From positions 1-36,211 of IMG/VR virus record IMGVR_UViG_3300034071_000844: a stretch of DNA of 36,211 nt; one strand, 5' to 3'. Below the pieces are notes generated by a model. It was not told the DNA's origin. It was given only the letters and a program-made list of their open reading frames with translations, and ran no database searches. The position numbers and the translations under genes are program-made. Shown here in pieces: positions 10,666-33,368 of this stretch (position 1 is the first letter of the stretch; every line of letters starts with the position of its first letter). The DNA is from a virus (taxonomy: Duplodnaviria; Caudoviricetes).

Positions 10666-10735
10666 CTGCATACGTTGTAGCCATCTGCTACACTTCTTCT
10701 TGTAAGTCAGTCAGCTAAAAGAAAGGCAATACGAA
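10666..10735 (+). promoter_or_regulatory. Cassette promoter/operator copy A
   Basis: CTGCAT-17bp-TACACT; palindrome TGTAGC-catct-GCTACA 10676-10692; leader GTCAGTCAGCTA; GAAAGG SD. Confidence 0.85.
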
Positions 10736-11059
10736 ATGACGAATCTAACTAAGAATGAAGCAGCAGCGATGATCGCGTCACTGAATTACACTGATCGCGA
10801 AAACCAGCTGTCAGATAACTATTCGAACGCAAGCATTGAAGTGCTAATGCAGACGCTCGACTGGTCAGCCCAGCAGGTAGGCGGTCTGATTAGCAGCCTG
10901 ACCGATAAGGGGTTCGGCTTTATCGACGGTGAAAATGGTCTTGACGGCATTCTCTGGCTCACCGAAGCAGGCGTAAATGCGATATTCGACTACATCGAGA
11001 AAAACAGCGTCGATATCGGTCACAATGAAGGCACGCCCGGTATGGGCATACAGTCTTAG
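10736..11059 (+). CDS. Cassette A gene: acidic winged-helix-like protein (107 aa)
   Basis: QQVGGLISSLTDKGF...WLTEAG resembles MarR-type wHTH; own promoter, SD and terminator. Confidence 0.75.
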   Translation: MTNLTKNEAAAMIASLNYTDRENQLSDNYSNASIEVLMQTLDWSAQQVGGLISSLTDKGFGFIDGENGLDGILWLTEAGVNAIFDYIEKNSVDIGHNEGTPGMGIQS

Positions 11060-11091
11060 CACTTCAGCAGCTAAGCAGCCAGCTTCGAATT

Positions 11092-11115
11092 AGGCGCCCT
11101 ACGGGGCGTCTTTTT
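11092..11115 (+). terminator. Intrinsic terminator (shared cassette family)
   Basis: AGGCGCCC-tacg-GGGCGTC-TTTTT. Confidence 0.85.
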
Positions 11116-11204
11116 CGTGCTGTTTACGACTTCGACCTTGACCAGCTGGTCAGGTGATCGAGCAGCCAGCACCAGTCGAAGCGCCTTCGCCGCGCCTTCG
11201 ACGC

Positions 11205-12173
11205 TCACGCTGCCACCGCGTCGAACCGAATCTGCGTGCTATTCAGCCTGACCTTACAGCCGCCCGGTCGACCTGCCCTGACCTTCGCCAGCCATATTTC
11301 GGCACTTGACAGAAGCCGCGCGCCGTCATCTGGGTCGTGGTCGCGAGCGACGATCATTACGGCGTCGCTGAAATTGGCTATCGAACCTGAGCCGCGCAGG
11401 TTCGCAAGTGTCGGACGGCGAAGACGCACGCCGCTATCGTCGACGCCTTTTTCATTGAAATGGTGGCCGACCAGCAGCAGCGCGCCGGTCATACGCGCCG
11501 CGTCGACTAGGCGACTGAAGCCTGCTTCTAGCTCGCGATGGTCGCGTGCTGGTACGCGCGAAAGCAGATCGAGCGCGAACACGTCTGCTGGGTGTTCAAG
11601 CATTAGGTCAGCGATATCACCGAAGCTTGCACCTGCGACTTCGCTTGCCGTCCACGGGAAAGTCTCAGCCTCACTTACGACGCGTTCGACTTCGTCTGCG
11701 CTCAGATCACCAGCCAGCACCCTTTCTTCAGCGATAGCAGTGCGTCGCTGAATCCAGCGCGAGTCGCGATCTGCGACCGACATTTCAGAAAGCAGCAGGT
11801 GACACGACGCGCCCTGATGCGCGAAGTCTTCAAGTGTCTGGTCAATCAGAATCGACTTACCGTGACCGCGTTCACCTGCGATCACGCAGGTCGCGCCGGG
11901 TCGCAGTCCACCCATAAGGCAGGCGTTCAATTCATCGAACGGCAGCTGCCACGTCTTCTGCGGCTCGCTGGTCACTAGCTTTTCGATGCGCTTCGGCGCG
12001 TCTTCGCGCTCGTAGGTGTTATCACCTAGCGGTCGAGTCGAGCGGGCTTCGAATAGCAACGCGTCAGCGGCTGCCCAGTCGTCTGCTGATCGACTCTCGA
12101 CGGCGTCAGCAGCCAGCAGAATTGCGCGGCGACGCATCTGCCATAGCGAGTCGCCCTTATTCACCAGCGTCAC
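11205..12173 (-). CDS. DnaB-like (SF4) replicative helicase, ATPase domain
   Basis: GGLRPG..IAGERGHGKS Walker A, LSEMS, RPTLANLRGSGSI..D, AKVRAG. Confidence 0.88.
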   Translation of the reverse strand: MTLVNKGDSLWQMRRRAILLAADAVESRSADDWAAADALLFEARSTRPLGDNTYEREDAPKRIEKLVTSEPQKTWQLPFDELNACLMGGLRPGATCVIAGERGHGKSILIDQTLEDFAHQGASCHLLLSEMSVADRDSRWIQRRTAIAEERVLAGDLSADEVERVVSEAETFPWTASEVAGASFGDIADLMLEHPADVFALDLLSRVPARDHRELEAGFSRLVDAARMTGALLLVGHHFNEKGVDDSGVRLRRPTLANLRGSGSIANFSDAVMIVARDHDPDDGARLLSSAEIWLAKVRAGRPGGCKVRLNSTQIRFDAVAA

Positions 12174-12918
12174 CTATAAACGGATTCGGCTTCTTCGGTG
12201 CAGCTGCGCCCTTCGATTCTTCGATGAAGCGTTCGATATGCTCAGCGTCGCGTAGCGCCAGCTCGATTGACAGGTATTCGCGGTGCGCAGGATTTTCGCC
12301 CCTGTGGAATGGTGAAGCGGCGATGCCTTCAACCGCTGCGACCAGATCATCTGTCGACCATTCATCTAGGCGACGCCGTATCAGGTCAGATCGAGACTTA
12401 GTCAGCTTCGTGCGTGACTTACCTGTCGCCCTGACCCACGCGTTATACACGCGATAAATTTCCAGCCTCTTACTTTGTCTTGTCTTGTCTTGTCTTGTCT
12501 TGTTAGTGACTTTGCGTGACTGGTCTGTGACAGGCCGTGACAGGTCTGTGACATCGCGTGACTTTTTCTGTTCACGCGCCTTCGCCTGCCTGAAAGCAGC
12601 CTGCCATTTCGACCAGTTTTCAATCGTGCAGGCGTAGCCGCGACCGTTCGCTTCACCTGCGAGAAAACCGACGTCGATCAGCCGCTTTATGACCGACTCG
12701 ACCACGTCGCGGTCTTTCACGTAGCAGTCGTGCGCCATATCGCGGTAGGTGCCGTGAACGGCGCCACCTTCGCCTAGCGTGCTGGCGCGAGCCATAAGCG
12801 CTACGGCGATCAGCGGCCCTACTGGGCCGAATTCTTCGCCCACGACTTCGATCTTTTCGTCGCTCAGAAACTGATTGTGCATCGCGTACCAGCGCACTAG
12901 CCAGCCGCCTTCGCGCAC
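12157..12918 (-). CDS. Replication initiator protein
   Basis: N-terminal wHTH-like region ending IENWSKWQ, low-complexity repeat linker carrying iterons, C-terminal helical domain; directly upstream of helicase. Confidence 0.8.
   Translation of the reverse strand: MREGGWLVRWYAMHNQFLSDEKIEVVGEEFGPVGPLIAVALMARASTLGEGGAVHGTYRDMAHDCYVKDRDVVESVIKRLIDVGFLAGEANGRGYACTIENWSKWQAAFRQAKAREQKKSRDVTDLSRPVTDQSRKVTNKTRQDKTRQSKRLEIYRVYNAWVRATGKSRTKLTKSRSDLIRRRLDEWSTDDLVAAVEGIAASPFHRGENPAHREYLSIELALRDAEHIERFIEESKGAAAPKKPNPFIGDAGE
12475..12562. repeat. Probable replication origin: (TTGTC)x5 plus six helically phased GTGAC iterons
   Basis: TTGTC tandem 12475-12503; GTGAC at 12506, 12516, 12527, 12537, 12548, 12558; inside initiator gene as in lambda O. 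Confidence 0.7.
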
Positions 12919-13106
12919 ACGGTTTCGAAGTCTTCGATCATAATTTTCGCCAGCGATTCGATAGCCATATCGCGAATGACGTCGTAGCCGACAGTCTCGA
13001 TGACGTCCTGACGCGCCACGCCCGCTTCGTCAGCAGCCTTCGTCGCCGCAATCGTGACCAGTGTTTCGACCACGCTTTCAAGACGTGTCGGGTCGAGCGG
13101 CGTCAC
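12897..13106 (-). CDS. Hypothetical protein (69 aa)
   Basis: Coupled ORF in early operon. Confidence 0.65.
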   Translation of the reverse strand: MTPLDPTRLESVVETLVTIAATKAADEAGVARQDVIETVGYDVIRDMAIESLAKIMIEDFETVCAKAAG

Positions 13107-13513
13107 TTGCGACCGTCCAGAAAGCCAGCAGATCGAGCTTCTTCCAGATGCGAATTCATCGCCGTTTGCGCAGCAGACAGACGCTTTTCAAGCGAGCGAA
13201 AGCGTCGGTCGATCACGACTAGACGCGCTCGAAGCTCGCTGCGACGGCCATACAGCTTGCCGGTGCCTGTTTCGTCATCGCATACAGCCTTGACGACGCG
13301 TGCTTTCAGCTCAGTGGCAGTCGCCTTCGGGTGATCGTCGGCCATCTTCACGGTAGCCAGCGCTTCTGCAATTTCTAGGCTTTCTTCCACGACGCCCATT
13401 TCTTCTTGCAGCTTCGTGAATTCAGGCGTCAGCGCGGCGATGCCAGATGCGCAGCGTTCAAGCTCAGCGCGCGTGCTCGCAGTCGAATCTAGGTGCACGA
13501 TCACTTCAGTCAT
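13103..13513 (-). CDS. Coiled-coil hypothetical protein (136 aa)
   Basis: Helical heptad-rich sequence; ATGA/GTGA overlaps. Confidence 0.7.
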   Translation of the reverse strand: MTEVIVHLDSTASTRAELERCASGIAALTPEFTKLQEEMGVVEESLEIAEALATVKMADDHPKATATELKARVVKAVCDDETGTGKLYGRRSELRARLVVIDRRFRSLEKRLSAAQTAMNSHLEEARSAGFLDGRK

Positions 13514-13599
13514 CGTCGACCACCACCAGATATGGCGATCAGAAGCGCGCCGTAGACGACCAGTGCAGCCAGTGTCACTACTGCTAGCACCATCGTCAC
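13510..13599 (-). CDS. Small membrane peptide
   Basis: GTG start overlapping upstream stop; MTMVLAVVTLAALVVYGALLIAISGGGRR. Confidence 0.55.
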   Translation of the reverse strand: MTMVLAVVTLAALVVYGALLIAISGGGRR

Positions 13600-13772
13600 G
13601 ACTGCCCTACTTCGTGCGGCGCGAGCACGTAATTTCGCTGCTGCACCTTGCAGCCGCACAGACCGTCGCACAGACCGCCCCAGCGCTGCCACGATCTGCA
13701 GCAGGGGCACACCCAGACGTAGATAGACAGCGGTGGCGACTTGCGCTTCGAGTAGACAGGCAGCGCGCTCAT
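13596..13772 (-). CDS. Small Cys-rich protein (58 aa)
   Basis: ATGA overlap at 13772; VWVCPCC...CDGLCGC. Confidence 0.55.
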   Translation of the reverse strand: MSALPVYSKRKSPPLSIYVWVCPCCRSWQRWGGLCDGLCGCKVQQRNYVLAPHEVGQS

Positions 13773-14278
13773 ACAGGCACACCAGACTTCAGGTCGTGCA
13801 TCGGACGCAGCAGACCAGACGACTGCGACACCCAGTGACCGGCGATGCCCAGCTTCGGGTGCGTCTTCAGCGGCGCTGCTTGCATCGCGTCGCCAGCACT
13901 GCACCAGCCGACCAGATTCGCGCAGCAGCGCGAATAGTCGAGCGTCACCAGCACGAAGCGCCCATCGACCGGGTCGGTCGGATAGACGATCAGGTGGCCG
14001 TTCGGCCACGTAGTCGACCGCACGTGAAGATCACCGACGTCGCCTGCATAGTCGCACGTGTCCTGAGCGCCCCAGTCGACACCTAACCACGCTGCGACAG
14101 CAGATTCGCCTAGACAGCCTACGCAGTCAGTTTCGAAGCGATTCAGCGTAGGGTCAATCTGCGCCTTCTGCACGCGACCCTTTTCGAACGCGATCAGCGT
14201 GCGATGCGCAGCCACGTCGAACGCGCGACTGTACCAGCGCGCCGGGTGACGGAATGGCATTTCGACGCTATTCGTCAT
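13769..14278 (-). CDS. Hypothetical protein, possible PD-(D/E)XK nuclease fold
   Basis: Start ATG 14278; GCLGESAVAAWLG...GDVGDLHVRST pattern. Confidence 0.55.
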   Translation of the reverse strand: MTNSVEMPFRHPARWYSRAFDVAAHRTLIAFEKGRVQKAQIDPTLNRFETDCVGCLGESAVAAWLGVDWGAQDTCDYAGDVGDLHVRSTTWPNGHLIVYPTDPVDGRFVLVTLDYSRCCANLVGWCSAGDAMQAAPLKTHPKLGIAGHWVSQSSGLLRPMHDLKSGVPV

Positions 14279-14435
14279 TGAAGTCTTTCGGTGCCAGCTC
14301 GCGTAGTGGCTCGACGATCTGTTCCATCGCATCTGCGTAGCCAGCTTCGTATGCCTTGCACGCGTCGATAGTGGGCGTCACGCCCATTTCTTTCAGTCGC
14401 GCAGACACGTCGTCAATGGTCGGGCCGTCGCTCAC
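14268..14435 (-). CDS. Hypothetical protein (55 aa)
   Basis: MSDGPTIDDVSARLKEMG...AYEAGYADAM; GTGA overlap; not in ORF track. Confidence 0.6.
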   Translation of the reverse strand: MSDGPTIDDVSARLKEMGVTPTIDACKAYEAGYADAMEQIVEPLRELAPKDFNDE

Positions 14436-14623
14436 GCGTCTTCAGACCTTCCAATTTTCTTAGCGAAGTCGTAGCCGACGCCCTGCGCGACCGTCCTAGT
14501 CGGATAGATGCGATGCCGATGACGCGCAGCCAGTGGCGGCGTAATTCCACGCGAGCGCAGGCAGTCCCAGCACGTGCAGCGGTTGCGCGATTCAAGCGCC
14601 TTTATCTGCTCAGTCGCCTTCAT
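14432..14623 (-). CDS. Hypothetical protein with CxCxxC (63 aa)
   Basis: Coupled ORF in early operon. Confidence 0.55.
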   Translation of the reverse strand: MKATEQIKALESRNRCTCWDCLRSRGITPPLAARHRHRIYPTRTVAQGVGYDFAKKIGRSEDA

Positions 14624-14810
14624 CGCTCAGACTTTCTTCAAGCCGCGACAGCTGGCCGTCAGCCTTCTTCGCGACTTCGATGCGCCAGTCATTGACGTCG
14701 CCGTCATTGCCTTCGATCTTCGCGTCGTAGGCAATATCGCGAAGCAGCACGTCAATCGCTTGACGCGCCAGCCGAATGCTGATCTGTATCTTCGAGTCGA
14801 TAGCCATTAC
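14610..14810 (-). CDS. Hypothetical protein
   Basis: Likely start MAIDSKIQ near the upstream stop; helical. Confidence 0.55.
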   Translation of the reverse strand, partial: VMAIDSKIQISIRLARQAIDVLLRDIAYDAKIEGNDGDVNDWRIEVAKKADGQLSRLEESLSDEGD

Positions 14811-15229
14811 GCTGCCATCGCTCCACGCCGGTATGACTGACACCATTTCTGCACCGAAGACTTCGATATGCCTAGCTCATTCGCTATCGCGGTCGTGGTT
14901 TCGCCAGCCTCGACGCGCTGCGCGGCACGCAGTCGATCTTCTGGGCATATCTTTCCCTGCTTCCACGTGCGTTCGACGAAGCAGTCATCGGGCACGTCTT
15001 GCAGGTTCAGGTGCAGCGCCCTGACCAGAAATTCGTCTGCTGTGTAGACAGATACCCAGCGGCTTTCATTCCGCCACGCATACCAGCGTCGCGCCCAGCG
15101 ACCCTTTCGCAGATCGTCGGCAGCGCGTATGCGCTCATTTAGACCTTCTTCGCCGTAGATACTTAGCAGCCAGTCGACGAAAGGCTTCGTGTTTATGTAG
15201 ACAGCGCGCTCGCGCAAGTCGTCAGTCAT
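14807..15229 (-). CDS. HTH DNA-binding protein
   Basis: C-terminal GETTTAIANELGISKSSVQKW. Confidence 0.75.
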   Translation of the reverse strand: MTDDLRERAVYINTKPFVDWLLSIYGEEGLNERIRAADDLRKGRWARRWYAWRNESRWVSVYTADEFLVRALHLNLQDVPDDCFVERTWKQGKICPEDRLRAAQRVEAGETTTAIANELGISKSSVQKWCQSYRRGAMAA

Positions 15230-16110
15230 TAGTCGCCCTTTCTTTCGCGGGCTTGCGCCCTTAGTGCTTTATCCAGTGCCTTGCCCTGCTGGTAAAGCGA
15301 CAGGGCATCTATGAAGTGCTGCGGCTCAGCGAGCGCGGGCACCAGCTCATAGGTGCCGTCATCGCGCACGTGCAAGAAAGCCTGCTGGTCAGATTCGCCG
15401 TATCCAGATTCGCGGCAGCCAATTTCGTAGCCAGCCATCTGCACGTGATAGGTACGTCGGTCGACCGACTTCGACGTCTTGCAGTCGATCAGCCATACGT
15501 CATCGCCGCCATCGAGCTTGACGCGAGCGTCGAAGCGACCGGCGAAGCCGTGTTCGGTGCTGACGATGACCGATTCGATCTGCTCAGCTACCGGCGTGCG
15601 CTCGTCAAGAAAAGCATTCACAGCAGCCACGTAGGGCTGCGCTGCAGGTGGCACGCCGTCTATCGACTGACGCTGACCACGCAGACCGGCTTCTAGCGCG
15701 TAGTGCGTAATCGAGCCGATGTCACCAGATGCGCCGCGCGAGTCGCGCCACGTCATCTTGCGATCACGCAGCATTACGCCGACTTCGTCAGCGTTCGCGC
15801 ACCACGCGAGCGCGTCAGGCAGCTGCGCAAGCGGCGTCGACAGCACTGCGTCGTGAACGCAAGTCGCGACGTTTGTGCGTTCGATCTTCGCGCCCCACGA
15901 AATTAGGTGGTCAGGATTCGCGTCGGCATACTTCGCGATGGTCGACGGCGACCCTAGCCTGCCTTTACCGACCCATTTCCCTGCCTTTTCTTGCGCGTCA
16001 GCGTAGTAGTCGTGTGCGGCGTCGCCGTAGAAAGCAGTCAGACCGTTCGGTGTCTGGTGCTTCTGAAAGCGCCCCACCTGCTCGACGAAGCTTTCGTAGA
16101 CGGCAGTCAT
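15229..16110 (-). CDS. PD-(D/E)XK exonuclease (RecE/Cas4-like recombination nuclease)
   Basis: GSITH, FAGRFD, LIDCKTSK, QMAGY motifs. Confidence 0.85.
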   Translation of the reverse strand: MTAVYESFVEQVGRFQKHQTPNGLTAFYGDAAHDYYADAQEKAGKWVGKGRLGSPSTIAKYADANPDHLISWGAKIERTNVATCVHDAVLSTPLAQLPDALAWCANADEVGVMLRDRKMTWRDSRGASGDIGSITHYALEAGLRGQRQSIDGVPPAAQPYVAAVNAFLDERTPVAEQIESVIVSTEHGFAGRFDARVKLDGGDDVWLIDCKTSKSVDRRTYHVQMAGYEIGCRESGYGESDQQAFLHVRDDGTYELVPALAEPQHFIDALSLYQQGKALDKALRAQARERKGD

Positions 16111-16625: not shown

Positions 16626-16711
16626 ACTGGCACCTTCACTGGCTTAGGCAGATCAACTTCAGCCGGTGGCGGTATATCGACGGTGCGAATCTGTTCGCCC
16701 AGATCAGACAC
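16622..16711 (-). CDS. Pro-rich peptide (29 aa)
   Basis: MSDLGEQIRTVDIPPPAEVDLPKPVKVPV; GTGA overlap with the next gene; not in ORF track. Confidence 0.55.
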   Translation of the reverse strand: MSDLGEQIRTVDIPPPAEVDLPKPVKVPV

Positions 16712-16790: not shown

Positions 16791-16825
16791 CGCGTCGGTA
16801 TCGGGGGCGGGGGCGTGCTGCATTC

Positions 16826-17760: not shown

Positions 17761-18159
17761 GTGTTCGCATACGAAAGCCAGCAGCAGACAGCCGACCGGC
17801 TGAAGCTAGGTCGACAGCAGTTAGGTCTGACGCAGGAACAGCTGGGCGACGCGCTTGACGTGACGGCGATGACCATTCGCCGCCGCGAACAGTGCCTGCC
17901 TAAGTCAATGCCTGATAATGCGTGGCAGCGCGCTTACTTGCTCGAACAGCTGGCCGATCTAGGCTGCCCACGCGACGTTCTAGGTCTGCCGTCGACTACT
18001 TCCCTGCAGATTGAAGGGCCAGTGCCTGTCGACGTCGAGACTGCCGAAGAAGCGATCAGGTCTGCTGAGCTTCGCGTTGCTCGCGCGGTCGAAGCGATGC
18101 ACCGGGTAGCTGAGACTGCCGCGCGGTTGCGATCAGAAGACCTTCGATCAGATGACTGA
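17761..18159 (+). CDS. XRE-family HTH repressor (immunity candidate)
   Basis: RLKLGRQQLGLTQEQLGDALDVTAMTIRRRE; likely GTG start 17761; divergent from early operon. Confidence 0.8.
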   Translation: MFAYESQQQTADRLKLGRQQLGLTQEQLGDALDVTAMTIRRREQCLPKSMPDNAWQRAYLLEQLADLGCPRDVLGLPSTTSLQIEGPVPVDVETAEEAIRSAELRVARAVEAMHRVAETAARLRSEDLRSDD

Positions 18160-18494
18160 CCGGCTCGCGCCAGATTGACGTAGGCGAAAGCGTTGCGTAG
18201 GTGCGTTGCGCTTCCAGAAGAAGTGCTGTCAATTCGTGCGGGGGCACGTGTCTAGGGTAGCGCAATTTCAGCCAATAACTAGCCGCTAGCGGTAAAACAG
18301 CTTGCCTTTTTCGAGGTAATTCGATGCGTGTCACAGTATGAAGGCTTGAAGGGCATCGCTGAATGGTGCGGTAGCCGAAACACAGTGAAGCGCCTTAGAA
18401 CGCCGCACAGCGCTTCTGAGCCTGTATCTAGGCGTGACAGGTAGTGACACGCTGCGAGCGCTTGCGGCGATCTGGCAGATCGGTCGACACCGCT

Positions 18495-18561
18495 ACGCAT
18501 TCCGTGTAGCGACCTGCTACACTGACCGTGTCAGTAAGTCAGCTAAGAGAAAGGCAACGTA
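18495..18561 (+). promoter_or_regulatory. Cassette promoter/operator copy B
   Basis: GTGTAGC-gacct-GCTACAC 18504-18522; TACACT -10; AGTCAGCTA leader; GAAAGG SD. Confidence 0.85.
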
Positions 18562-18726
18562 ATGAATACAGTCCCGACAGTACAGATGACCTTCACGAAG
18601 CAGGAATTGACCACGCTGCGTGAAGCGCTCAACCTTCTTGCCGTCCACACTGCTTCGGCAGATGAGACTGACAAGATCGAGCAGCTGCGCGAAATAATCC
18701 AGTACGAAGAAAGCGAGCTGCGCTAA
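18562..18726 (+). CDS. Cassette B gene: small acidic helical protein (54 aa)
   Basis: MNTVPTVQMTFTKQELTTLREALNLLAVHTASADETDKIEQLREIIQYEESELR; SD-led; below ORF-track cutoff. Confidence 0.8.
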   Translation: MNTVPTVQMTFTKQELTTLREALNLLAVHTASADETDKIEQLREIIQYEESELR

Positions 18727-18792
18727 GTCGAAACCGGGGCGATCTGCCCCGGTCTGTCGGAATTGACCTACCGGCACTGAAGATGACAGGTC
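18727..18792 (+). ncRNA. Type II hammerhead ribozyme HH1 with pseudoknot; predicted cleavage after C18754
   Basis: GUC-GAAA; stem III ACCGGGGC/GCCCCGGU; GUC triplet; stem I UGUCGG/CCGGCA; core CUGAAGA; extra U then GAC closes stem II; loop GACCU pairs with tail AGGUC. Confidence 0.9.
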
Positions 18793-18845
18793 GTGTAGCA
18801 GTTTGCTACACTGTAGGTATCAGTCAGCTAACGGAAAGGCACACG
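18783..18845 (+). promoter_or_regulatory. Cassette promoter/operator copy C (overlaps HH1 3' end)
   Basis: ATGACA-18bp-TACACT; GTGTAGC-agttt-GCTACAC 18793-18811; CAGTCAGCTA; GAAAGG. Confidence 0.8.
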
Positions 18846-19166
18846 ATGACCAGTAGACAGCGAGCAGCACAGGTTCGCAAGCAGCACCCAGACTACGACC
18901 GCGACGCATATAGTCGTGGCTACAAGTCTTCGGTCAATTCGACCGGGGCGGGCTTCGCGCTCGAAGCCGCCGATGGTCGCGGCGAACCGAATGAATGGTA
19001 CGACGGCTACAGCGACGCAGCTACCTGCCTTGAAAAGTGGCATCGCCCGCTGTGCGACGCTGATCTGCACGACGTGGGCGGCTGCAGGTCGACCGCAGAT
19101 GAGCCTTGCATCTGCGGCGCACCGAAGGCCGAAGGTCGCGACGACTGCGGCGATCACGGCTGGTAG
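18846..19166 (+). CDS. Cassette C gene: 106 aa protein with Rmf-like aromatic-Gly motifs and Cys/His-rich tail
   Basis: ATG 18846 after GGAAAGG; AYSRGY and WYDGY motifs; flanked by two hammerheads. Confidence 0.75.
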   Translation: MTSRQRAAQVRKQHPDYDRDAYSRGYKSSVNSTGAGFALEAADGRGEPNEWYDGYSDAATCLEKWHRPLCDADLHDVGGCRSTADEPCICGAPKAEGRDDCGDHGW

Positions 19167-19235
19167 GCGAAACGGTCGCGCCTTCGGGCGCGGCTGTCCG
19201 ACAGACTGACGACCTGTCGCTGACGAGCCTAGTCA
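19164..19235 (+). ncRNA. Type II hammerhead ribozyme HH2 with pseudoknot; predicted cleavage after C19198
   Basis: Stem II UAGGC/GCCUA; GAAA; 11-bp stem III with UUCG loop; GUC triplet; stem I CGACAG/CUGUCG; core CUGACGA; loop UGAC pairs with tail GUCA. Confidence 0.93.
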
Positions 19236-19254
19236 CCACCAGAAAGATGACCAG

Positions 19255-19455
19255 ATGACCGATGACGTAAGAAAGACACTGAAGGCAGCCGGTCGACGCT
19301 ACGGCAAGACGCAGGCTGCTCAGACGCAAGCGCTCGACGATCTTCGAGCGGCGATCACAGCTGCAGCAGACGCAGGTATGCCGAAGACCGAAATTGCCGA
19401 CGCTGCCGGTGTGCATCGCGTGACGGTTTACAAGATGATTGACGCAGGCAGCTAG
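19255..19455 (+). CDS. Small HTH protein (66 aa), candidate repressor of the cassette operator
   Basis: Long N-terminal helix then GMPKTEIADAAGVHRVTVYKMI. Confidence 0.85.
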   Translation: MTDDVRKTLKAAGRRYGKTQAAQTQALDDLRAAITAAADAGMPKTEIADAAGVHRVTVYKMIDAGS

Positions 19456-19961
19456 TGACCGAATTGCAGCAAGTCGCTACTGAATATGCGCAGCAGGGGC
19501 TTTCAGTCCTGCCGTTAGAACCGCGCGGAAAGCGCCCGATAGGGCGGCTAGTCAAGCGCGGCCACCTTTCAGCCAGTGCAGACCCTGAAGTCGTAGGCAG
19601 CTGGTGGGCGAAGGTGCCTGACGCGAATATTGGCATCGCCTGTTCGCTCAGTGGCATCGTCGTCTTTGATATCGACAGACGTAATGGCGGCGAGCGGCCA
19701 GACTGCCTGCCAGATACTTTTACCGTCGAGACTGGCGACGGCGAACATCTTTACTACTGCGCGCCAGCAGACTTTTCGCCAGCGCAGGTCGACGACGAAG
19801 GTATCGACGTGAAATGGAATGGCTACGTCGTAGCTGCGCCTTCAATTCACCCTAACGGCAAGACCTACAGCGTCGCCCGTCAAGACGTGGTGCGAGCGCT
19901 GCCGTCAGACCTTCAGGCATTTCTGAGCGATGACCTATCGGTGATTGAAGAAGCACCCTAG
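19455..19961 (+). CDS. Stand-alone bifunctional DNA primase/polymerase (Prim-Pol, AEP) domain
   Basis: VLPLEPRGKRP, NIGIA, VFDID, T..G.HLYY, GIDVK, YVVAAPSIH motifs; no helicase fusion. Confidence 0.92.
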   Translation: MTELQQVATEYAQQGLSVLPLEPRGKRPIGRLVKRGHLSASADPEVVGSWWAKVPDANIGIACSLSGIVVFDIDRRNGGERPDCLPDTFTVETGDGEHLYYCAPADFSPAQVDDEGIDVKWNGYVVAAPSIHPNGKTYSVARQDVVRALPSDLQAFLSDDLSVIEEAP

Positions 19962-19974
19962 ACGTCAGGTCGCG

Positions 19975-20041
19975 CTGCATTCTGTGTAGCAACCTGCTAC
20001 ACTAGACGTGTAATCAGTCAGCTACAGAAAGGTGATTCGAA
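19975..20041 (+). promoter_or_regulatory. Cassette promoter/operator copy D
   Basis: CTGCAT-17-TACACT; GTGTAGC-aacct-GCTACAC 19984-20002; CAGTCAGCTACAGAAAGG. Confidence 0.85.
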
Positions 20042-20308
20042 ATGAAGTCATTCACACCCAGCACTGCAAGCGTCGGTGACAGCGTCACTACCAGCGTTCG
20101 CACAGGTCAGCTTTTCGTGCAAGACCGACCCTTCGAGTGCCGACCCAGCTGCGTCTGCGGGTCGTGCAACGGCGTCGTGACCACTGGTCGCGGCACCGTG
20201 ATCGAATTCATTCACTGGGCCGATGGTGCCATCGACGCGAAAATCGCTGACGATCAGGGCAAGGTATTGACCTTCCCGGTCTACGCTGGCAATAGCGACG
20301 CCTGCTAG
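20042..20308 (+). CDS. Cassette D gene: hypothetical protein (88 aa), CxxxCxCxxC insert
   Basis: SD-led; followed by terminator. Confidence 0.75.
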   Translation: MKSFTPSTASVGDSVTTSVRTGQLFVQDRPFECRPSCVCGSCNGVVTTGRGTVIEFIHWADGAIDAKIADDQGKVLTFPVYAGNSDAC

Positions 20309-20328
20309 CTCGTCACAGAACGCGAAAC

Positions 20329-20352
20329 GGGGCGCCTTCGGGCGCCCTTTTT
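20329..20352 (+). terminator. Intrinsic terminator (shared family)
   Basis: GGGCGCC-ttcg-GGCGCCC-TTTTT. Confidence 0.88.
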
Positions 20353-20362
20353 CGTGGTCTAA

Positions 20363-20430
20363 CTGCATTTGGTGTAGCGACCTGCTACACTTACGGTGTA
20401 AGTCAATCAGCTACAGAAAGGCAATAGGCA
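20363..20430 (+). promoter_or_regulatory. Cassette promoter/operator copy E
   Basis: CTGCAT-17-TACACT; GTGTAGC-gacct-GCTACAC 20372-20390. Confidence 0.85.
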
Positions 20431-20628
20431 ATGACCGAATACACGCAGGCGCAACTCGATAAGGCAGTCGGCAAGTACACGAAGACCAATGACCCAGATC
20501 AGGTCGCCCGGTGGCGCGCTGACGGCGACAGCACGACTGCTGAAAACGTCGGCAAGCTGGTACGCAACTGTGACTTCGATCAGTACGAGCGCGTCATCGA
20601 GTACCTAGAAGAAGACGGGCTGCTTTAG
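20431..20628 (+). CDS. Cassette E gene: small acidic protein (65 aa)
   Basis: SD-led; followed by terminator. Confidence 0.78.
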   Translation: MTEYTQAQLDKAVGKYTKTNDPDQVARWRADGDSTTAENVGKLVRNCDFDQYERVIEYLEEDGLL

Positions 20629-20650
20629 TCTTCGTCGAGCCTTACGAATC

Positions 20651-20674
20651 AGGCGCCCTACGGGGCGCCTTTTT
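20651..20674 (+). terminator. Intrinsic terminator (shared family)
   Basis: AGGCGCCC-tacg-GGGCGCCT-TTTT. Confidence 0.88.
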
Positions 20675-20680
20675 CGTGCC

Positions 20681-21121
20681 CTATTCGCTGTCAGGCTCGC
20701 TGAACGGTCGCGGGTCGAGCGCCCTGTTATGGCGATACGACGGTCTACCTTCGGCTTCGCGCACTACGTCGCGCGCCATCTGGCAAGCCTGCCAGCTGAG
20801 CAGACCGAAGCTCGCTGCTCGAAGCAGAAGCACGCGCGCCGTATGCACTTCGTCGCGTGGCATCGTGTGCGACACGTCTCGCAGGCGCTGCAGCGCAAGT
20901 AGCGCCCACGCTGCCTGATCTGAGCCTTCTTCGCTGCATTCTGCGATCAGCTCGTCGACGGTCTTCGATGCGAAGGCACTGTCGCCGCCGTATTCCACGC
21001 TGCCGTGATCTAGCCGCTTCTGCACCACGTGTTCGAAGGCTCGCGCGGTAGCACCATCGCACTTCGCTTCGGCTGCCATCGCTTCTAGGGCTTGCGATTC
21101 GTATTTCAGATCACGGGTCAC
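20681..21121 (-). CDS. Possible all-alpha NTP pyrophosphohydrolase (MazG-like)
   Basis: KRLDHGSVEYG...ELIAECSEEGSD pattern resembles R..G..YG..E..EE..D. Confidence 0.45.
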   Translation of the reverse strand: MTRDLKYESQALEAMAAEAKCDGATARAFEHVVQKRLDHGSVEYGGDSAFASKTVDELIAECSEEGSDQAAWALLALQRLRDVSHTMPRDEVHTARVLLLRAASFGLLSWQACQMARDVVREAEGRPSYRHNRALDPRPFSEPDSE

Positions 21122-23167: not shown

Positions 23168-23236
23168 CTGCACACGGTGTAGCGACTTGCTACACTGACC
23201 GTGTCAGTAAGTCAGCTACTAGAAAGGTGATAGAAA
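23168..23236 (+). promoter_or_regulatory. Cassette promoter/operator copy F
   Basis: CTGCAC-17-TACACT; GTGTAGC-gactt-GCTACAC 23177-23195. Confidence 0.85.
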
Positions 23237-23506
23237 ATGCACGCAGAATCTTCGAAGTCTGAAGTGAAAGAAATTCCCGTCAGGTGGATTCAGGACGGCT
23301 ACGACGTCCTGATCGACGGTGAATGGCGCCTTGTGTATCGCGCGTCGTGGCAGATGCCGGGCGAAGATCGCGGCATTCTGGGCGCTGGCTCATCGCCGCA
23401 GACAGTGACGATTCAATTCGGCGCTGCGCACGATTACAAGTCGATGGTCTTCAATAACCACGACCAGCGGGTGACGATTCGTCGCCAGCCAGTACCGGGA
23501 ACGTGA
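23237..23506 (+). CDS. Cassette F gene 1: hypothetical beta-rich protein (89 aa)
   Basis: SD GAAAGGTG; IQDGYDVLIDGEWRLV suggests an SH3-like barrel. Confidence 0.75.
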   Translation: MHAESSKSEVKEIPVRWIQDGYDVLIDGEWRLVYRASWQMPGEDRGILGAGSSPQTVTIQFGAAHDYKSMVFNNHDQRVTIRRQPVPGT

Positions 23507-23512
23507 TCGCTA

Positions 23513-23857
23513 ATGGCTACCGAAATTGACATATACGGCAAGCGCGTGACGCTCGAACGTGTCTATACGAAGGCTGATCGTCAGTACGGCTTCAAGTCGT
23601 CACCTGACTACGCGCCTGAGTATGAAAAGTCGACCGAATACGAAGTGCTGATCGACGGCAAGACTGCTGGCTATGTGTTTGCTTACGAAACGCAGAATGA
23701 GCATTTCGCTAGCACTGGTAATCACGTCGCGTGGCGAAGCAAGCCGCGTAAAACGTGGGGGTACTTTATGCCCGGTGAGCTTCGCGGCACTGTGTGGCTG
23801 TCTACGCGTCGCGACGCCGTAGAACGTCTGGTGGGCGAGCACGTTCAGGAAAGCTAA
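23513..23857 (+). CDS. Cassette F gene 2: hypothetical protein (114 aa)
   Basis: Follows gene 1 by 6 nt; YEVLIDGK..GYV...W..TRRDAVERL. Confidence 0.72.
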   Translation: MATEIDIYGKRVTLERVYTKADRQYGFKSSPDYAPEYEKSTEYEVLIDGKTAGYVFAYETQNEHFASTGNHVAWRSKPRKTWGYFMPGELRGTVWLSTRRDAVERLVGEHVQES

Positions 23858-23955
23858 TCGCTAATGGCTACCACGATCACAGTCAGCGACCTACTTCGCA
23901 GCACCAGTCGCCTGTAGACTTACGTCTGCCGCTCGTAGCTGACTGGCAACGCGTT

Positions 23956-23982
23956 AGGCGCCTTCGGGCGCCTTTCGTGTTT
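23956..23982 (+). terminator. Intrinsic terminator (shared family)
   Basis: AGGCGCC-ttcg-GGCGCCT-TTCGTGTTT. Confidence 0.8.
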
Positions 23983-25052: not shown

Positions 25053-25062
25053 TTCTATCCTC

Positions 25063-25331: not shown

Positions 25332-25359
25332 TCATATCGTGGTGGTAGTGGTGTATGGG

Positions 25360-29987: not shown

Positions 29988-32029
29988 TAGTAGCTAGCCA
30001 GCCTTCCAGCGGTCGACGGCGTCTGAACGCCCAGACCCACGCGTCCACCGATCTGCCCAGATATGGCTGCGCTCAGTGCCTGCACCAGCACGCCGTATTG
30101 CGACGTCGCTACGTTAGTCGCGTTGCGCGAAATCTGTAGCTGCTCAGACAGCAGACGATTAGTTTCTTCCAGCTGCACTGAATCGCCGCCCAGATTCGCA
30201 ATATCGTCGCGATAGCCCTTTAGCGTCTGACGGGCCTGCGTCAGGGCCTGCCAATCCATAACCTTGCGCTTGTTTTCGCCCTTGCCTATCCATTTAGAAG
30301 GCCGCTGCAACCTGCGTTCGCGCTGCGTCCAATACCGTTCAAGCGCTTTCAGTGCGGTCAGATCGTCAGACGTCGTAGGCGTCAATTCAGCGCCAGCCAG
30401 ATTCGCTTCAAGCCTTGCGACGCCGCCCTTCGCGAATCGCGGCACTGCACTATTCATCGCCATTAGACGGTCAAGACCGATGGCGCTGACCGCTCGACGA
30501 TTCATTACGAATTCGCCCGGTTCTAGCAGCGCCGGAATGGTGTCGCCTTCGCCCACGCCGGGAATGAAGCCGCCGCGCTGAAAGCCCAGAACGTCGCGAA
30601 TCTTTCCCGGCATTGACGCAATGGTGCCCTTCAGGTTGCCGATAGCGTCAGCCACGTCTTGCACGACGCCCTTGACGGTATTGAAGGCACTGACGAATAC
30701 AGACTTGACAGCGTTCGCACCGGCCTTGACCTTGCCGAAGGCATTAGACATCGCGTTCCAGATGCTTGACGCGACCGACTTGACAGCGCCCAGCGCTGCC
30801 CTGAACACACTGGCCGTAAGCTTAGCAGCGCCCTTCGCACCGTTGCTAATAAGCTTGAAGCCGTCACCCACCGGGCCGAAAACGCCTCTTATCTTCGATT
30901 CAAACCAGCGCCCCATCGCCTTGCCGAACATACTCGCGCCGGTGCTGCCCATATTCAGCAGCGTGCTGAACAGCTCACCCTTCGAATTCCACAGACCCAC
31001 CGCGATAGCAGCGATGATCTTCGGCGTCGCGACCATAAAGCCTTCGACCAGTGGCGGCGTAATCTGCGTGGTGATCTGCGTAAAGACGGGCACCAGCGCC
31101 TGAATGCCCTTCGATATCCAATTACCGACCTGCTTCCAGTCGATTGACTTGAAGGTCTTCGTAATTTCCTGACCGATGGCAGTAATCTTTTCATTCGTCG
31201 ACAGCTTCGGGTCATTGACGATCTTCGCGAAGTCAGCCATTTTCGTAGCGGCGAAGGTGATCGCAGGTGCTAGCGCCAGCGTGAAATTCTTCTGCAGACC
31301 TATCTGAGCCAGCTTCACTTTCAGCAGCGCGCTTCGCAGGTCGCCAGCTTTCTTGAAGCCCAGATCGTCGAAGGTCGCGCCGACTTCTTTCGCGTACTTC
31401 AGATTGTCTTTCAGCGCCTTCGGGCCTTCGCGAAGCAGTGGCAGCATCGACTGCCAGCCCCTACCCATAAGCTTGCTTGCAGCATTGACGCGTTCGGTGC
31501 CAGCGCCCATACCTTGCAAGCCCTTCGATATATCGACCAGAAGACCGCCGACGCCCTTCGTCTTCAGGTCTTGCAGCGAAATACCCAGCGACTGAAATAC
31601 GCCGGTCGACGATTCTGAGCCGTCTTTAGCCTGCTCGACCTGCGTTGAAAGCGTCTTGAATGCCATACCCAGCTGCGTGACTTCGATGCCACGCGACTTA
31701 GCGACTGCGGCGAACGCTGACGCTTCTTCGGTCGCCATACCCAGATTCAGTGTCAGGTTAGAAGTCGCCTTGTAAAGCTCGATGGTCTGTTCAACCGCAG
31801 CCTGCGCTTGCGAAATGCTCAGGTAGGCAGCAGCGGCACCAGCTGCGTATCGCGCAGCGCTTCTGAATGAATTGCCCAGCGTGTGCGTCGCACGATCTAC
31901 GTTTCTGACTGAGCGCGTGCCGTCGCGGTCGAATTTCCGCAGCGAGCGCGTAGCCTGACTGACGCCGCGATTCAGACCGCTGGCATCTAGGTCAATCGCG
32001 ACACGAAATTTACCGCCGGACGCAGGCAC
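29987..32029 (-). CDS. Tape measure protein
   Basis: 680 aa Ala/Gly-rich helical; C-terminal FQRGG..GDTIPALLEPGEFV. Confidence 0.9.
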   Translation of the reverse strand: MPASGGKFRVAIDLDASGLNRGVSQATRSLRKFDRDGTRSVRNVDRATHTLGNSFRSAARYAAGAAAAYLSISQAQAAVEQTIELYKATSNLTLNLGMATEEASAFAAVAKSRGIEVTQLGMAFKTLSTQVEQAKDGSESSTGVFQSLGISLQDLKTKGVGGLLVDISKGLQGMGAGTERVNAASKLMGRGWQSMLPLLREGPKALKDNLKYAKEVGATFDDLGFKKAGDLRSALLKVKLAQIGLQKNFTLALAPAITFAATKMADFAKIVNDPKLSTNEKITAIGQEITKTFKSIDWKQVGNWISKGIQALVPVFTQITTQITPPLVEGFMVATPKIIAAIAVGLWNSKGELFSTLLNMGSTGASMFGKAMGRWFESKIRGVFGPVGDGFKLISNGAKGAAKLTASVFRAALGAVKSVASSIWNAMSNAFGKVKAGANAVKSVFVSAFNTVKGVVQDVADAIGNLKGTIASMPGKIRDVLGFQRGGFIPGVGEGDTIPALLEPGEFVMNRRAVSAIGLDRLMAMNSAVPRFAKGGVARLEANLAGAELTPTTSDDLTALKALERYWTQRERRLQRPSKWIGKGENKRKVMDWQALTQARQTLKGYRDDIANLGGDSVQLEETNRLLSEQLQISRNATNVATSQYGVLVQALSAAISGQIGGRVGLGVQTPSTAGRLASY

Positions 32030-32076
32030 GCTAAATCGACTGCCTTTCGGCAGCCGTCAGTGGTCGCATATTCATT

Positions 32077-32289
32077 TCATCGCAGCCCCTGTAGGTCATC
32101 TGGCACCTGATCGAAGGCATTACCGGCTGGTCGCGCACCGTCGCCTTCGCCTGTTTCGTGTTCGACGAATCGACTGACTAGAAGCTCGCGATACCACGCA
32201 GGTATTACGTAAGACGCTTCGTACCAGTCGAATTGAAAGTATCTTCTGAGCAGGTACAGCTCGACTTCGTCCTGCTCGCTCAGGTAGGG
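32077..32289 (-). CDS. Tail assembly chaperone frameshift extension (gpT-like)
   Basis: Open -1 frame PYLSEQDEVELYLLRRYFQFDWYEASYVIPAWYRELL...GLR with no evident own start. Confidence 0.65.
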   Translation of the reverse strand, partial: PYLSEQDEVELYLLRRYFQFDWYEASYVIPAWYRELLVSRFVEHETGEGDGARPAGNAFDQVPDDLQGLR

Positions 32290-32642
32290 CGGTCGACGCT
32301 GCCCTGCCTATCTTCAGTGCCGTTAGCGGCTTCAATGGCTTCGAGCACGTCAGTCCACAGACCCAGAAACTGTCGCGGCGTGATCGCGCCGGATTCGACG
32401 CCTTCGGTCAGCACTTCAGACGCTGGCTTTTCGTGGCCGACTGGCTTGACGATCAGGTCGAAGCCTTCGGCTAGCAATTCAAGCGCCCGCGCTTCTTCGG
32501 CGTCGGTGTCGCCTATTTCTTCCATTTCAGCCATTAGGTGACTGAAGCGCTTCGACGCTTCGTATGGCATATCGACGGTTTCGTATTTCGTGCCGCCCAG
32601 ATCGACTTCGACTGGGTTATATGCTCGCAGGCTAATTGCCAC
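32280..32642 (-). CDS. Tail assembly chaperone (gpG-like)
   Basis: GTG 32642 after CAGGAG; acidic helical; ends DRPT; upstream of tape measure. Confidence 0.8.
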   Translation of the reverse strand: MAISLRAYNPVEVDLGGTKYETVDMPYEASKRFSHLMAEMEEIGDTDAEEARALELLAEGFDLIVKPVGHEKPASEVLTEGVESGAITPRQFLGLWTDVLEAIEAANGTEDRQGSVDRPT

Positions 32643-32688
32643 GTGTTTTTCTCCTGTGATCGTAGGTACAGAAAATTGCGCAATTACG

Positions 32689-32762
32689 TTGCACACTGTG
32701 TAGCAACCTGCTACACTTCTTCTTGTAAGTCAGTCAATCCACTACAGAAAGGGGTACGACTT
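32689..32762 (+). promoter_or_regulatory. Cassette promoter/operator copy G
   Basis: TTGCAC-17-TACACT with extended -10 TGn; GTGTAGC-aacct-GCTACAC 32698-32716; AT-rich upstream element. Confidence 0.88.
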
Positions 32763-32930
32763 ATGAAGCACGAAATCAGCATTACGCCGAAGGCAGCCAG
32801 CGAGCGGGGAGCGCTCGACGGTTTCCAGATTCGCTGCACGTGCGGCCACGTCGCGGGTAATAGCTTTCGCGTCGGTGCTCAGCACGACGCAAGCGCCCAC
32901 AGGCGCTGGCACGCTAAGCGCGGCAAGTAA
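32763..32930 (+). CDS. Cassette G gene: small CxC..HxxxH zinc-finger protein (55 aa)
   Basis: ATG 32763 after GAAAGGGG; RCTCGH...AHRRWH. Confidence 0.78.
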   Translation: MKHEISITPKAASERGALDGFQIRCTCGHVAGNSFRVGAQHDASAHRRWHAKRGK

Positions 32931-32949
32931 GCCGCAATTCAAGCGAAAC

Positions 32950-32971
32950 AGGCGCCTTCGGGCGTCTTTTT
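32950..32971 (+). terminator. Intrinsic terminator (shared family)
   Basis: AGGCGCC-ttcg-GGCGTCT-TTTT. Confidence 0.85.
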
Positions 32972-32981
32972 CGTGGTCTAA

Positions 32982-33047
32982 CTGCACACTGTGTAGCAAC
33001 CTGCTACACTTACGGTGTAAGTCAATCAGCTACAGAAAGGCAAGAAA
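32982..33047 (+). promoter_or_regulatory. Cassette promoter/operator copy H
   Basis: CTGCAC-17-TACACT; GTGTAGC-aacct-GCTACAC 32991-33009. Confidence 0.85.
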
Positions 33048-33320
33048 ATGACGAAGGTAAAGACCCGCAACATCGCAACGCTCATCGACCTGTTCGAAGA
33101 CCGTCGCGTCTGCATCGAACAGCAGCTGGGCGAGCTTGACGATGCGACCGCAGTGCTGCGCGATTACATCGCGACCGCCCACCTGTCGGGAATGACCGAC
33201 GCGCAGATCGTCGAAGCGTTTGGCGTCACGCTCAGCGAGTATGCCGACGTTGCACACGATCTGAGCGACGGCGTGCGCGCTGACGCGCTGGTCGACGCGA
33301 TTCGCGCTCAGCGCGCTTAG
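33048..33320 (+). CDS. Cassette H gene: acidic helix plus HTH-like protein (90 aa)
   Basis: LRDYIATAHLSGMTDAQIVEAFGVT resembles the 19255 HTH. Confidence 0.75.
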   Translation: MTKVKTRNIATLIDLFEDRRVCIEQQLGELDDATAVLRDYIATAHLSGMTDAQIVEAFGVTLSEYADVAHDLSDGVRADALVDAIRAQRA

Positions 33321-33344
33321 CACAGCAGCAGAAGCAAGCGAATT

Positions 33345-33368
33345 AGGCGCCCTGCGGGGCGCCTTTTT
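33345..33368 (+). terminator. Intrinsic terminator (shared family)
   Basis: AGGCGCCC-tgcg-GGGCGCCT-TTTT. Confidence 0.88.

Follow-up and report, generated by a model that had tools for sequence, protein, structure and literature searches.

Dispersed promoter-operator cassettes and a putative HTH repressor in a 36-kb temperate siphophage

Lambdoid morons carry their own promoter and terminator, are inserted between late genes and are usually expressed in the lysogen, with no single promoter-operator common to them. Among more closely related arrangements, the SAS/ESAS units of cluster K phages, in the portions of the two papers used here, combine dispersed SigA-like promoters that bear an inverted repeat with a conserved leader/RBS and small non-structural genes (PMC3203893; PMC11373665). 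What ESAS does has been an open question from 2011 onwards, and in 2024 the identity of its regulator was still called unclear (PMC11373665). In large lytic T4-like myophages, PeSLs, at about 50 per genome, flank ORFans with a repeated sigma-70-type promoter, a stem-loop terminator and a Shine-Dalgarno (SD) sequence; genes are lost, gained and relocated at these repeats, the ORFs that differ between close relatives are bounded by them, and the sections of these reports used here describe no operator or repressor (PMC2839356; PMC4122927). Aca operons (PMC13551039) and the p576 Reg576 regulon (PMC8708921) produce a burst of expression on entry that is then shut off. Finally, type II hammerhead ribozymes form clusters in prophages, several flanking single variable accessory genes, with a pseudoknot between loop I and the 3' tail (PMC3088659; RF02276).

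Here we analyse a 36,211-nt stretch of viral DNA (hereafter, the window), the genome of a complete temperate HK97-type siphophage of 36 kb. Actinomycetota are the likely host, given that one named relative of the integrase (47%) comes from Solirubrobacterales; a search for the integrase across genomes gave no informative host clue. We assign a probability of roughly 0.7 to the reading that the phage carries eight interchangeable, relocating accessory-gene cassettes, the promoters of which are likely all repressed by HTH66, a putative repressor of 66 aa.

Repeated promoters, leaders and cassette ends

All eight palindromes of the form TGTAGC-N5-GCTACA that a sequence-only reading of the window had listed are exact (Table 1). 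With up to two mismatches allowed, the window contains 10 matches compared with 1.35 ± 1.04 in 100 shuffles, none of which reaches 10; a copy with two mismatches lies at 19465, within the prim-pol gene. As that reading proposed, the right arm forms a -10 element on the plus strand, with TG-C-TACACT, an extended -10, in every copy, and a YTGCAY -35 box is found 17 bp upstream in six of the eight, the exceptions being ACGCAT at copy 18505 and ATGACA at copy 18794, where the spacing is 18 bp and the box lies inside a predicted ribozyme. A leader and a GAAAGG SD precede a small ORF in all eight cassettes, but the description of these ORFs as orphans was too strong because the 107-aa and 90-aa proteins have matches. 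A conserved hairpin in the 5' UTR was considered and dropped, the leader folds being weak (-1.9 to -10.5 kcal/mol).

Six GGCGCC hairpins with U-tails, nearly identical as previously claimed, terminate six of the units, and at 20323-20389 and 32944-33008 the terminator adjoins the next promoter. The two cassettes that lack a terminator end in predicted type II hammerhead ribozymes instead. Not every unit consists of a single gene: the one starting at 18794 continues into the HTH66 gene and then the prim-pol gene, and the unit at 23178 takes in a second gene. The cassettes occupy four slots, slot 1 following the integrase gene and slot 3 lying between holin and lysin. These slots run opposite to the replication and virion operons, in line with the earlier claim that they are antisense to the core operons, but are co-directional with the integrase and CI genes.

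Table 1 Features of the window discussed in the text
Feature	Position	Strand	Details
Large serine integrase	9178..10623	+	basis for calling the phage temperate
Slot 1 cassette	10666..11121	+	promoter-operator 10676; leader/SD; 107-aa ORF 10736-11059; terminator ~11086-11118
CI-like XRE repressor	17767..18159	+	palindrome absent from switch region; rival regulator, disfavoured
Slot 2, cassette 2	18495..18726	+	promoter-operator 18505; leader/SD; 54-aa ORF 18562-18726
Predicted type II hammerhead ribozyme 1	18726..18795	+	Rfam RF02276, 31.5 bits, E 0.011; predicted cut after 18754
Slot 2, cassette 3	18783..19166	+	promoter-operator 18794; leader/SD; 106-aa ORF 18846-19166
Predicted type II hammerhead ribozyme 2	19165..19238	+	predicted cut after 19198; directly 5' of HTH gene
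HTH66 (66 aa)	19255..19455	+	phrog_686-like, HTH_23; long helix + HTH; candidate repressor
Prim-pol N-terminal domain gene (168 aa)	19455..19961	+	variable cargo behind HTH gene
Slot 2, cassette 4	19975..20356	+	promoter-operator 19985; 88-aa ORF 20042-20308; terminator ~20323-20356
Slot 2, cassette 5	20363..20678	+	promoter-operator 20373; 65-aa ORF 20431-20628; terminator ~20645-20678
Slot 3 cassette	23168..23980	+	promoter-operator 23178; 89-aa ORF 23237-23506; terminator ~23950-23980
Slot 3, second gene (114 aa)	23513-23857	+	direct repeat on both flanks; short remnant ORF also in slot
Slot 4, cassette 7	32689..32975	+	promoter-operator 32699; 55-aa ORF 32763-32930; terminator ~32944-32975
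Slot 4, cassette 8	32982..33372	+	promoter-operator 32992; 90-aa ORF 33048-33320; terminator ~33339-33372

Both predicted ribozymes, which the earlier reading missed along with the candidate regulator, have the GAAA / NUH / CUGANGA core and three stems, with stem II open. Ribozyme 1 has one additional U after the CUGANGA core and a 5-bp pseudoknot, and its 3' end overlaps the -35 of promoter 18794. The window copies score 31.5 and 27.9 bits against RF02276, for which the gathering threshold is 37, and related copies score 40.1 (the orthologue of ribozyme 2 in the close relative G001), 39.8 and 39.3; accordingly, Rfam at the gathering threshold recovers neither window hammerhead. Matches to RF02276 are present in the window, in G001 and in a second relative, G010, and a motif scan found five hammerheads compared with none in 30 Markov controls. 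Among 129 viral loci with the same hammerhead pattern, a clear HTH66-family gene is found only in G001. A scan of viral contigs for the palindrome yielded at least 119 loci, nearly all attributable to chance, and among these the leader was seen only in the window's own phage and G001; the pattern scan of metagenomes gave no match, and the P0003 scan a single weak one (2 kb).

Cargo exchange and cargo function

G001 is about 90% identical to the window phage (86-94% at the nucleotide level over long blocks) and retains all four slots. The non-slot proteins tested all have matches there (33/33, at 80-98%); 6 of the 11 slot proteins have none, and another matches over 21 aa only. The blocks of identity end at the leader/SD (18565, 23228 and 32752) and restart at terminators (20652, 23909 and 33337). 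Cassettes also move: the 65-aa gene of cassette 5 is present twice in G001, in slots 2 and 4, on a 3417-nt contig from run X2 cassette 8 lies in slot 2, with the HTH unit on one side and the gene at 20681-21121 on the other, and in contigs of X2/X4 hammerhead 1 is linked to the leader of slot 3, these run-level cases being assembled contigs near repeats from one study. The plug-in variability anticipated from the sequence is apparent both in G001 and in contigs from another run. The likely route of movement is homologous recombination at the leader and terminator repeats. Promoter "alleles" (families D2 and D11) are common to copies in different slots, which shows gene conversion among the copies.

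The proposal that the cargo consists of host-takeover or anti-defence genes found no backing, in that no cargo protein matches a known anti-defence family in PHROGs, Pfam, PADLOC or the Atlas, the first three of which miss novel Acrs. A structure model gives the 107-aa protein, which matches phrog_25342, a MarR-like winged-helix fold (TM 0.63-0.66); two distant matches of this protein proved cold-shock-like on inspection and were dropped. The 90-aa protein weakly matches the HTH66 profile (E 0.0025), no homologue of the mobile 65-aa protein was found beyond G001, and the 114-aa protein has no family in the Atlas. By analogy with the known systems, counter-defence or host modulation might still be the most likely class of cargo function, although we consider this somewhat doubtful, and immediate-early firing on DNA entry, which is consistent with the Aca/Reg576 logic, may occur.

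The candidate repressor and its alternatives

The HTH66 gene is located downstream of cassette promoters 18505 and 18794, with no TAnnnT between hammerhead 2 and the start codon and no run of four or more T between promoter 18794 and its stop codon. The protein is 97% identical in G001 even though both neighbouring genes have been replaced. A fold search yielded generic resolvase/Fis-type HTHs and nothing at E<=0.001, no known Aca is among its PDB sequence or fold matches, and tblastn in annotated phages with HTH66, P0003 and the G010 HTH gave no useful match; alignment A2 was too diverse to serve for a locus scan.

A profile of 36 HTH66 relatives matches Anaya gp37, and the family includes the ESAS-driven cluster K gene (Anaya 37/Adephagia 36). 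Reciprocally, when 712 ORF segments of the window are searched with a profile of nine named-phage proteins, HTH66 comes first (E 1.8e-4, against 0.13 for the runner-up), the similarity being remote (E 1e-13 to 1e-4; 0.005 per domain for MalagasyRose). TGT-N10/11-ACA is present at the gene's own promoter in eight of these nine family members, seven of which belong to cluster K or are K-like and hence are not independent cases, with Gordonia phage Thimann counted only when its start is reset to the Met at the onset of the profile match. The corresponding count is 0/14 for other HTH/switch genes, a weak negative control since these genes are often operon-internal; the background for TGT-N10-ACA is 0.015-0.096 per 150 nt. 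Thimann has TGTAG-N6-CTACA at this promoter, and its 48-kb sequence contains just two TGTAG-N6/7-CTACA, at 42 and 66 nt ahead of the HTH match. The spacing is N7 in the window versus N6 in the named phages, and no exact TGT..ACA site was found at prophiFSIL01-1 gp87 or at the weak G013 match. A prediction that Boilgate, reported to be without ESAS, would also be without the HTH failed: it carries the gene together with variant TGTAG-type sites. In G010 (TerL 79%), an antisense accessory operon ends in the HTH66 orthologue, and the only two TGT-N10/11-ACA sites in the first 20 kb, both imperfect, lie just upstream of this operon; the record, about 85% complete, gave no homologue of CI or of the 107-aa or 90-aa protein and no integrase match. 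Conservation of the HTH within the regulon, the family-wide TGT..ACA at own promoters and its absence from the CI switch support, by comparison, the suggestion that a single putative repressor governs the shared promoter-operator.

Under the preferred reading, when naked phage DNA enters the cell, its cassette promoters would still be unoccupied and would be fired by SigA-type RNA polymerase of the host, and the two hammerheads would cut the 18505/18794 transcript, freeing the HTH66 message. An HTH66 dimer would then bind TGTAG-N7-CTACA over the spacer and -10, turning down all eight promoters, its own included (negative autoregulation). A further effect of such repression would be to curb antisense transcripts that run into the replication and virion operons and to hold cargo expression down in the lysogen. 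Counting against this scheme are the extended -10, which by itself accounts for the whole right arm, and the HTH-like character of two of the cargo proteins.

It is unlikely that the palindrome is instead bound by the CI-like immunity repressor, with the cassettes being lytic genes silenced in the lysogen in stoperator-like fashion. In favour of this, the phage is temperate, G001 conserves CI at 90%, XRE dimers often read 17-bp operators, and a GC-AACCT-GC core is present at the CI promoter in both the window and G001. However, the 250 nt preceding CI contain no TGT-N10/11-ACA, nor do those preceding the first leftward gene, the CI switch is absent from the best 22 operator-matrix scores, and in G010, where HTH, sites and predicted ribozymes all occur, CI has no match; the same argument is used against CI for ESAS in the part of the 2024 paper drawn on here (PMC11373665).

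We also regard as improbable a plain PeSL arrangement with no phage repressor, in which the palindrome would serve a host factor or an activator, or would be a neutral passenger that gene conversion has kept uniform across strong constitutive promoters. Along with the extended -10 and the promoter alleles common across slots, the mismatches tolerated in three of the six operator copies of G001 fit this possibility, but 13 of the 14 copies share one left arm, in contrast to the variable central five bases and -35 spacer, and the half-site recurs in unrelated phages that carry this HTH family. There is little probability, too, that the regulator is a cargo protein: the 107-aa protein, with its MarR-like model, is encoded immediately after an operator and is retained in G001, and the 90-aa protein resembles the HTH66 profile, but the former is only 76% identical in G001 despite an unchanged operator, the gene for the latter is absent from G001, and neither is matched in G010. 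Integron-like exchange at the palindromes as serine-integrase recombination sites, suggested by the recombinase gene adjoining slot 1 and by the mobility of the cassettes, is highly improbable because the breakpoints fall at leaders and terminators, outside the palindrome, 17 bp is short for a serine-integrase att site, and G010 has variable antisense cargo without an integrase match.

Comparison with known systems

The cassettes resemble lambdoid morons in having their own promoter and terminator. Each ingredient is known, but the combination of relocating genome-wide operator-promoter cassettes, predicted ribozyme ends and a putative repressor inside the regulon was not found in the literature searched. 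Tentatively, and with slightly less than even confidence, we propose that one coiled-coil plus HTH family (HTH66, Thimann gp31, Adephagia/ZoeJ gp36, Anaya gp37, Boilgate gp34) could be a general autoregulatory repressor of dispersed accessory promoters in actinobacterial phages that reads TGT(A/T)G half-sites. It would then be the missing ESAS regulator, for which the gp36-type HTH is a specific candidate on the basis of sequence comparison, would mark co-regulated cargo as Aca marks anti-CRISPRs, and here would run a genome-wide, ribozyme-processed, recombination-shuffled counter-defence regulon. The family and its operator together provide a guilt-by-association handle for co-regulated small genes in actinobacterial phages.

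As in cluster K, going by the portions of those papers used here, a TGT..ACA repeat covers a SigA-like promoter and is absent from the immunity switch, and the genes behind the motif include one for an HTH of this broad family; but ESAS promoters have two TGT-N10-ACA inverted repeats (16-17 bp) each, in contrast to the one perfect 17-bp site here, and the window lacks both the pair of imperfect repeats and the 13-bp SAS consensus, its leader and sequences differing from those of cluster K. The cluster K units are co-directional with their neighbours and, in the same portions, are not described as terminator-bounded or relocating, with no ribozymes reported (PMC3203893; PMC11373665). The window cassettes work like PeSLs and yet are not PeSLs: as far as the sections used extend, they differ in number (8 copies), in lying antisense within core operons of a temperate siphophage of 36 kb, and in having an operator and predicted ribozymes (PMC2839356; PMC4122927). 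Unlike in the prophage hammerhead clusters (PMC3088659), the predicted ribozymes alternate with terminators as cassette ends, and one would gate the putative repressor message. In Aca operons and the Reg576 regulon, as with the putative repressor of the window, a small repressor is encoded downstream in the operon, and several strong promoters, its own among them, carry an inverted repeat. Unlike with Aca, no acr or other known anti-defence gene was found beside the window HTH, and the co-regulation described for Aca spans up to three neighbouring operons (PMC13551039), compared with eight promoters genome-wide; Reg576, for its part, is an RHH protein (PMC8708921), whereas HTH66 is an HTH. With repressor binding being putative, the regulon is best read as Aca/Reg576-like, autoregulated, recombination-shuffled and accessory.

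Genome architecture and promoter cassettes

The window spans a whole phage genome: it carries a 127-nt terminal repeat and falls in the class of direct terminal repeats, with completeness put at 100%. It encodes an HK97-type head, a siphoviral tail, amidase, DnaB, primase, a large serine integrase and an XRE repressor, with nearly all core genes on the minus strand. Given that the nearest relatives of the capsid protein are from mycobacteriophages (about 41%) and that the integrase has one named relative, from Solirubrobacterales (47%), the host is probably an actinobacterium. An inverted repeat, GGTACA-N5-TGTACC, possibly part of attP, lies immediately 5' of the integrase gene (9100-9155). 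The dnaB and primase genes, adjacent in the more distant relative G010, are separated in the window by the integrase and slot 1, inserted antisense. ARAGORN calls a tRNA-Val(CAC) at 6076-6147 (minus strand), overlapping the 5' end of an HNH ORF and without Rfam support at E<=1.

The cassette set described in the sequence-only reading is real. All eight TGTAGC-N5-GCTACA palindromes are exact, far beyond chance, and the right arm supplies the -10 as claimed: every copy lies on the plus strand and reads as the extended -10 TG-C-TACACT. The YTGCAY -35 attributed to most copies lies 17 bp upstream in six of the eight; the leader, GAAAGG and ORFs, the six GGCGCC terminators and the four locations (slots) were likewise found as described. 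When the window's copies are pooled with those of its close relative G001 (14 in all), the palindrome arms are nearly invariant and the central five bases variable. Between CI, the CI-like XRE repressor, and cassette 2, a non-coding stretch of ~340 nt (18160-18500) is conserved block-wise in G001 and carries short inverted repeats, with no Rfam match.

Slots, candidate repressor gene and operator-like sites
Feature	Coordinates	Location or description
Slot 1		after integrase
Slot 2		after CI
Slot 3		between holin and lysin
Slot 4		between tail tube and tail chaperone
HTH66	19255-19455 (window)	66 aa, 3' of hammerhead 2
Boilgate TGTW-N8-WACA sites (seven)	9742, 9771, 12934, 12957, 31621, 32464, 33836 (L310)	

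Overlooked in that reading was a type II hammerhead following each of the two cassettes that lack a terminator. When the whole window was scanned with Rfam at E<=1, these two were the sole matches, at 31.5 and 27.9 bits against a gathering score of 37; their relatives in G001 and G010 reach 40.1, 39.8 and 39.3 bits. A motif scan of the window and 11 loci recovered five hammerheads, and 30 Markov controls of the window yielded none. Each of the five combines a 6-bp stem I with a 4-6-bp loop I/tail pseudoknot. Self-cleavage is predicted. Because hammerheads beside variable prophage genes are already known (PMC3088659) and 124 viral stretches fit the pattern for this form, the ribozyme by itself is ordinary. 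The terminators at 20323 and 32944 start with CGAAAC and have a GCGCC-TTCG hairpin in common with stem III of hammerhead 2; they may be remnants of a decayed ribozyme, or the hairpin may simply have been extended.

Cargo exchange and relocation

The four slots are all retained in G001 (35.8 kb, 86-94% identical to the window over long blocks), where they hold six promoter-operators and one leader-only unit. Every one of the 33 non-slot proteins tested has a match in G001 at 80-98%; 6 of the 11 slot proteins have none there, and one matches over 21 residues only. Identity stops at the leader/SD and restarts at the terminators, and a 65-aa gene is present in both slot 2 and slot 4 of G001. Among contigs assembled near repeats in one study, cassette 8 occupies slot 2 on a 3417-nt contig of sequencing run X2 (listed in two records that agree in length and depth and are taken as one), and hammerhead 1 is joined to the slot-3 leader in contigs of runs X2 and X4. 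The claim of plug-in variable cargo is thus borne out, gene content both differing and relocating between the window and G001, and we infer exchange by homologous recombination at the repeats.

Several further rearrangements were observed. In the region 23500-23920, a 114-aa gene lies between copies of a direct repeat that includes the start codon, and behind it comes a short remnant similar to the beginning of the 106-aa slot-3 gene of G001; in X2 and X4 contigs the 5' half of the 114-aa gene is retained but joined to another 3' half. A short Cys-rich module, CxCG..P...CGEH, ends the 106-aa protein of the window (19100-19166) and an otherwise unrelated 112-aa protein of G001 (L140 13430-13500), and begins the first accessory protein of G010 (L173 ~15950-16010), a distribution that reads as domain-level shuffling. 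The tail tube/chaperone slot of G010 (L173 1940-2930) holds a co-directional gene, by eye sugar-aminotransferase-like, and no antisense cassette. Outside the slots, G001 has an extra lower-GC insert of ~800 nt (L142 ~10080-10860), between window positions 6855 and 6870.

In PHROGs, Pfam and PADLOC, none of the slot proteins matched a family linked to anti-defence or host takeover, so that the label proposed for the cargo goes unsupported beyond the architecture. The 107-aa protein has a predicted winged-helix fold, the 90-aa protein weakly resembles HTH66, and the 168-aa protein is a prim-pol domain.

A candidate repressor and its relatives

HTH66, the candidate repressor, is predicted to form one long helix and an HTH (pLDDT 96). 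The gap directly 5' of its gene contains no -10-like hexamer and no T-run occurs from promoter 18794 to its stop, so the cassette promoters would have to drive its expression. In G001, where both neighbouring genes are replaced, HTH66 retains 97% identity. In G010 (terminase 79%, 69% GC), its orthologue is the last gene of an antisense small-gene operon with two hammerheads, and the only two TGT-N10/11-ACA sites of the 20-kb piece lie just upstream of this operon; this record, about 85% complete, gave no homologue of CI, the integrase or the 107-aa protein.

A profile of 36 HTH66 relatives (35 of 45 matches kept as short single-domain proteins) matches Anaya gp37, whose own gene sits downstream of an ESAS, the promoter-associated inverted repeat of cluster K mycobacteriophages, and whose homologues span 241 phage records, including Adephagia gp36. 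TGT-N10-ACA occurs at the gene's own start in eight of nine named family members examined (Anaya, Pixie, ZoeJ, Boilgate, MalagasyRose, Yasnaya_Polyana, Aminay and Thimann, the last counted only with the start moved to the Met where the profile match begins), representing about three lineages when kin are counted once. The prophiFSIL01-1 member and a weak match in G013 have no exact site. TGT-N10-ACA is absent within 250 nt of all 14 of the other HTH or switch genes checked, a weak control because many are operon-internal.

Thimann has two TGTAG-N6-CTACA sites, the only two in 48 kb. Both fall in the annotated first 18 codons of Thimann gp31 (L316 25874-26128), and this start is probably too early, the profile match beginning at the next Met. 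Boilgate, reported to lack ESAS (PMC12699233), has in its 36 kb four TGTAG-N6-CTACA sites and three of the TGTTG type, which together look like a variant ESAS set.

The reverse profile, built from the named-phage members, ranks HTH66 first among 712 window segments (E 1.8e-4). As the operator spacing differs by one base between the window and the named phages and the HTH homology is remote, we rate binding of HTH66 to the cassette palindrome as no more than likely. The recognition-helix residue after the invariant Arg loosely tracks the half-site, with Met/Val accompanying TGTAG-containing sites and Leu accompanying TGTTG sites.

Proposed circuit and known systems

Each part has precedents: PeSL shuffling, prophage hammerheads, Aca-type control and ESAS-type promoter repeats (PMC3203893), to which motifs of Microbacterium phages are similar (PMC7302621). 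Our literature search, largely of openly available papers, found neither this combination of features nor a named ESAS regulator, so that a prior suggestion is possible; PMC11373665 calls the regulator's identity unclear and CI unlikely, and the GenBank note for ZoeJ gp36 reads putative transcription factor. The main value of the present analysis is that the question of the ESAS regulator becomes directly testable.

Upon entry, with the repressor absent, host polymerase would fire all eight promoters, and the hammerheads would break the slot-2 RNA down to gene-length fragments, freeing the HTH message. The HTH protein would then cover the site over spacer and -10 and turn down every copy, so that less antisense transcription runs through the late and replication operons and cargo stays low in the lysogen. 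In cluster K lysogens, genes 36-38 reportedly show low expression and other ESAS genes none (PMC11373665), which fits a self-limiting repressor. The proposed circuit follows the logic demonstrated for Aca, the anti-CRISPR-associated repressors, with an entry burst and subsequent repression (PMC13551039), and for Reg576 of plasmid p576 (PMC8708921). The cargo swaps and relocates at repeats in the same way as reported for T4-type PeSLs, the promoter/stem-loop cassettes (PMC2839356, PMC4122927).
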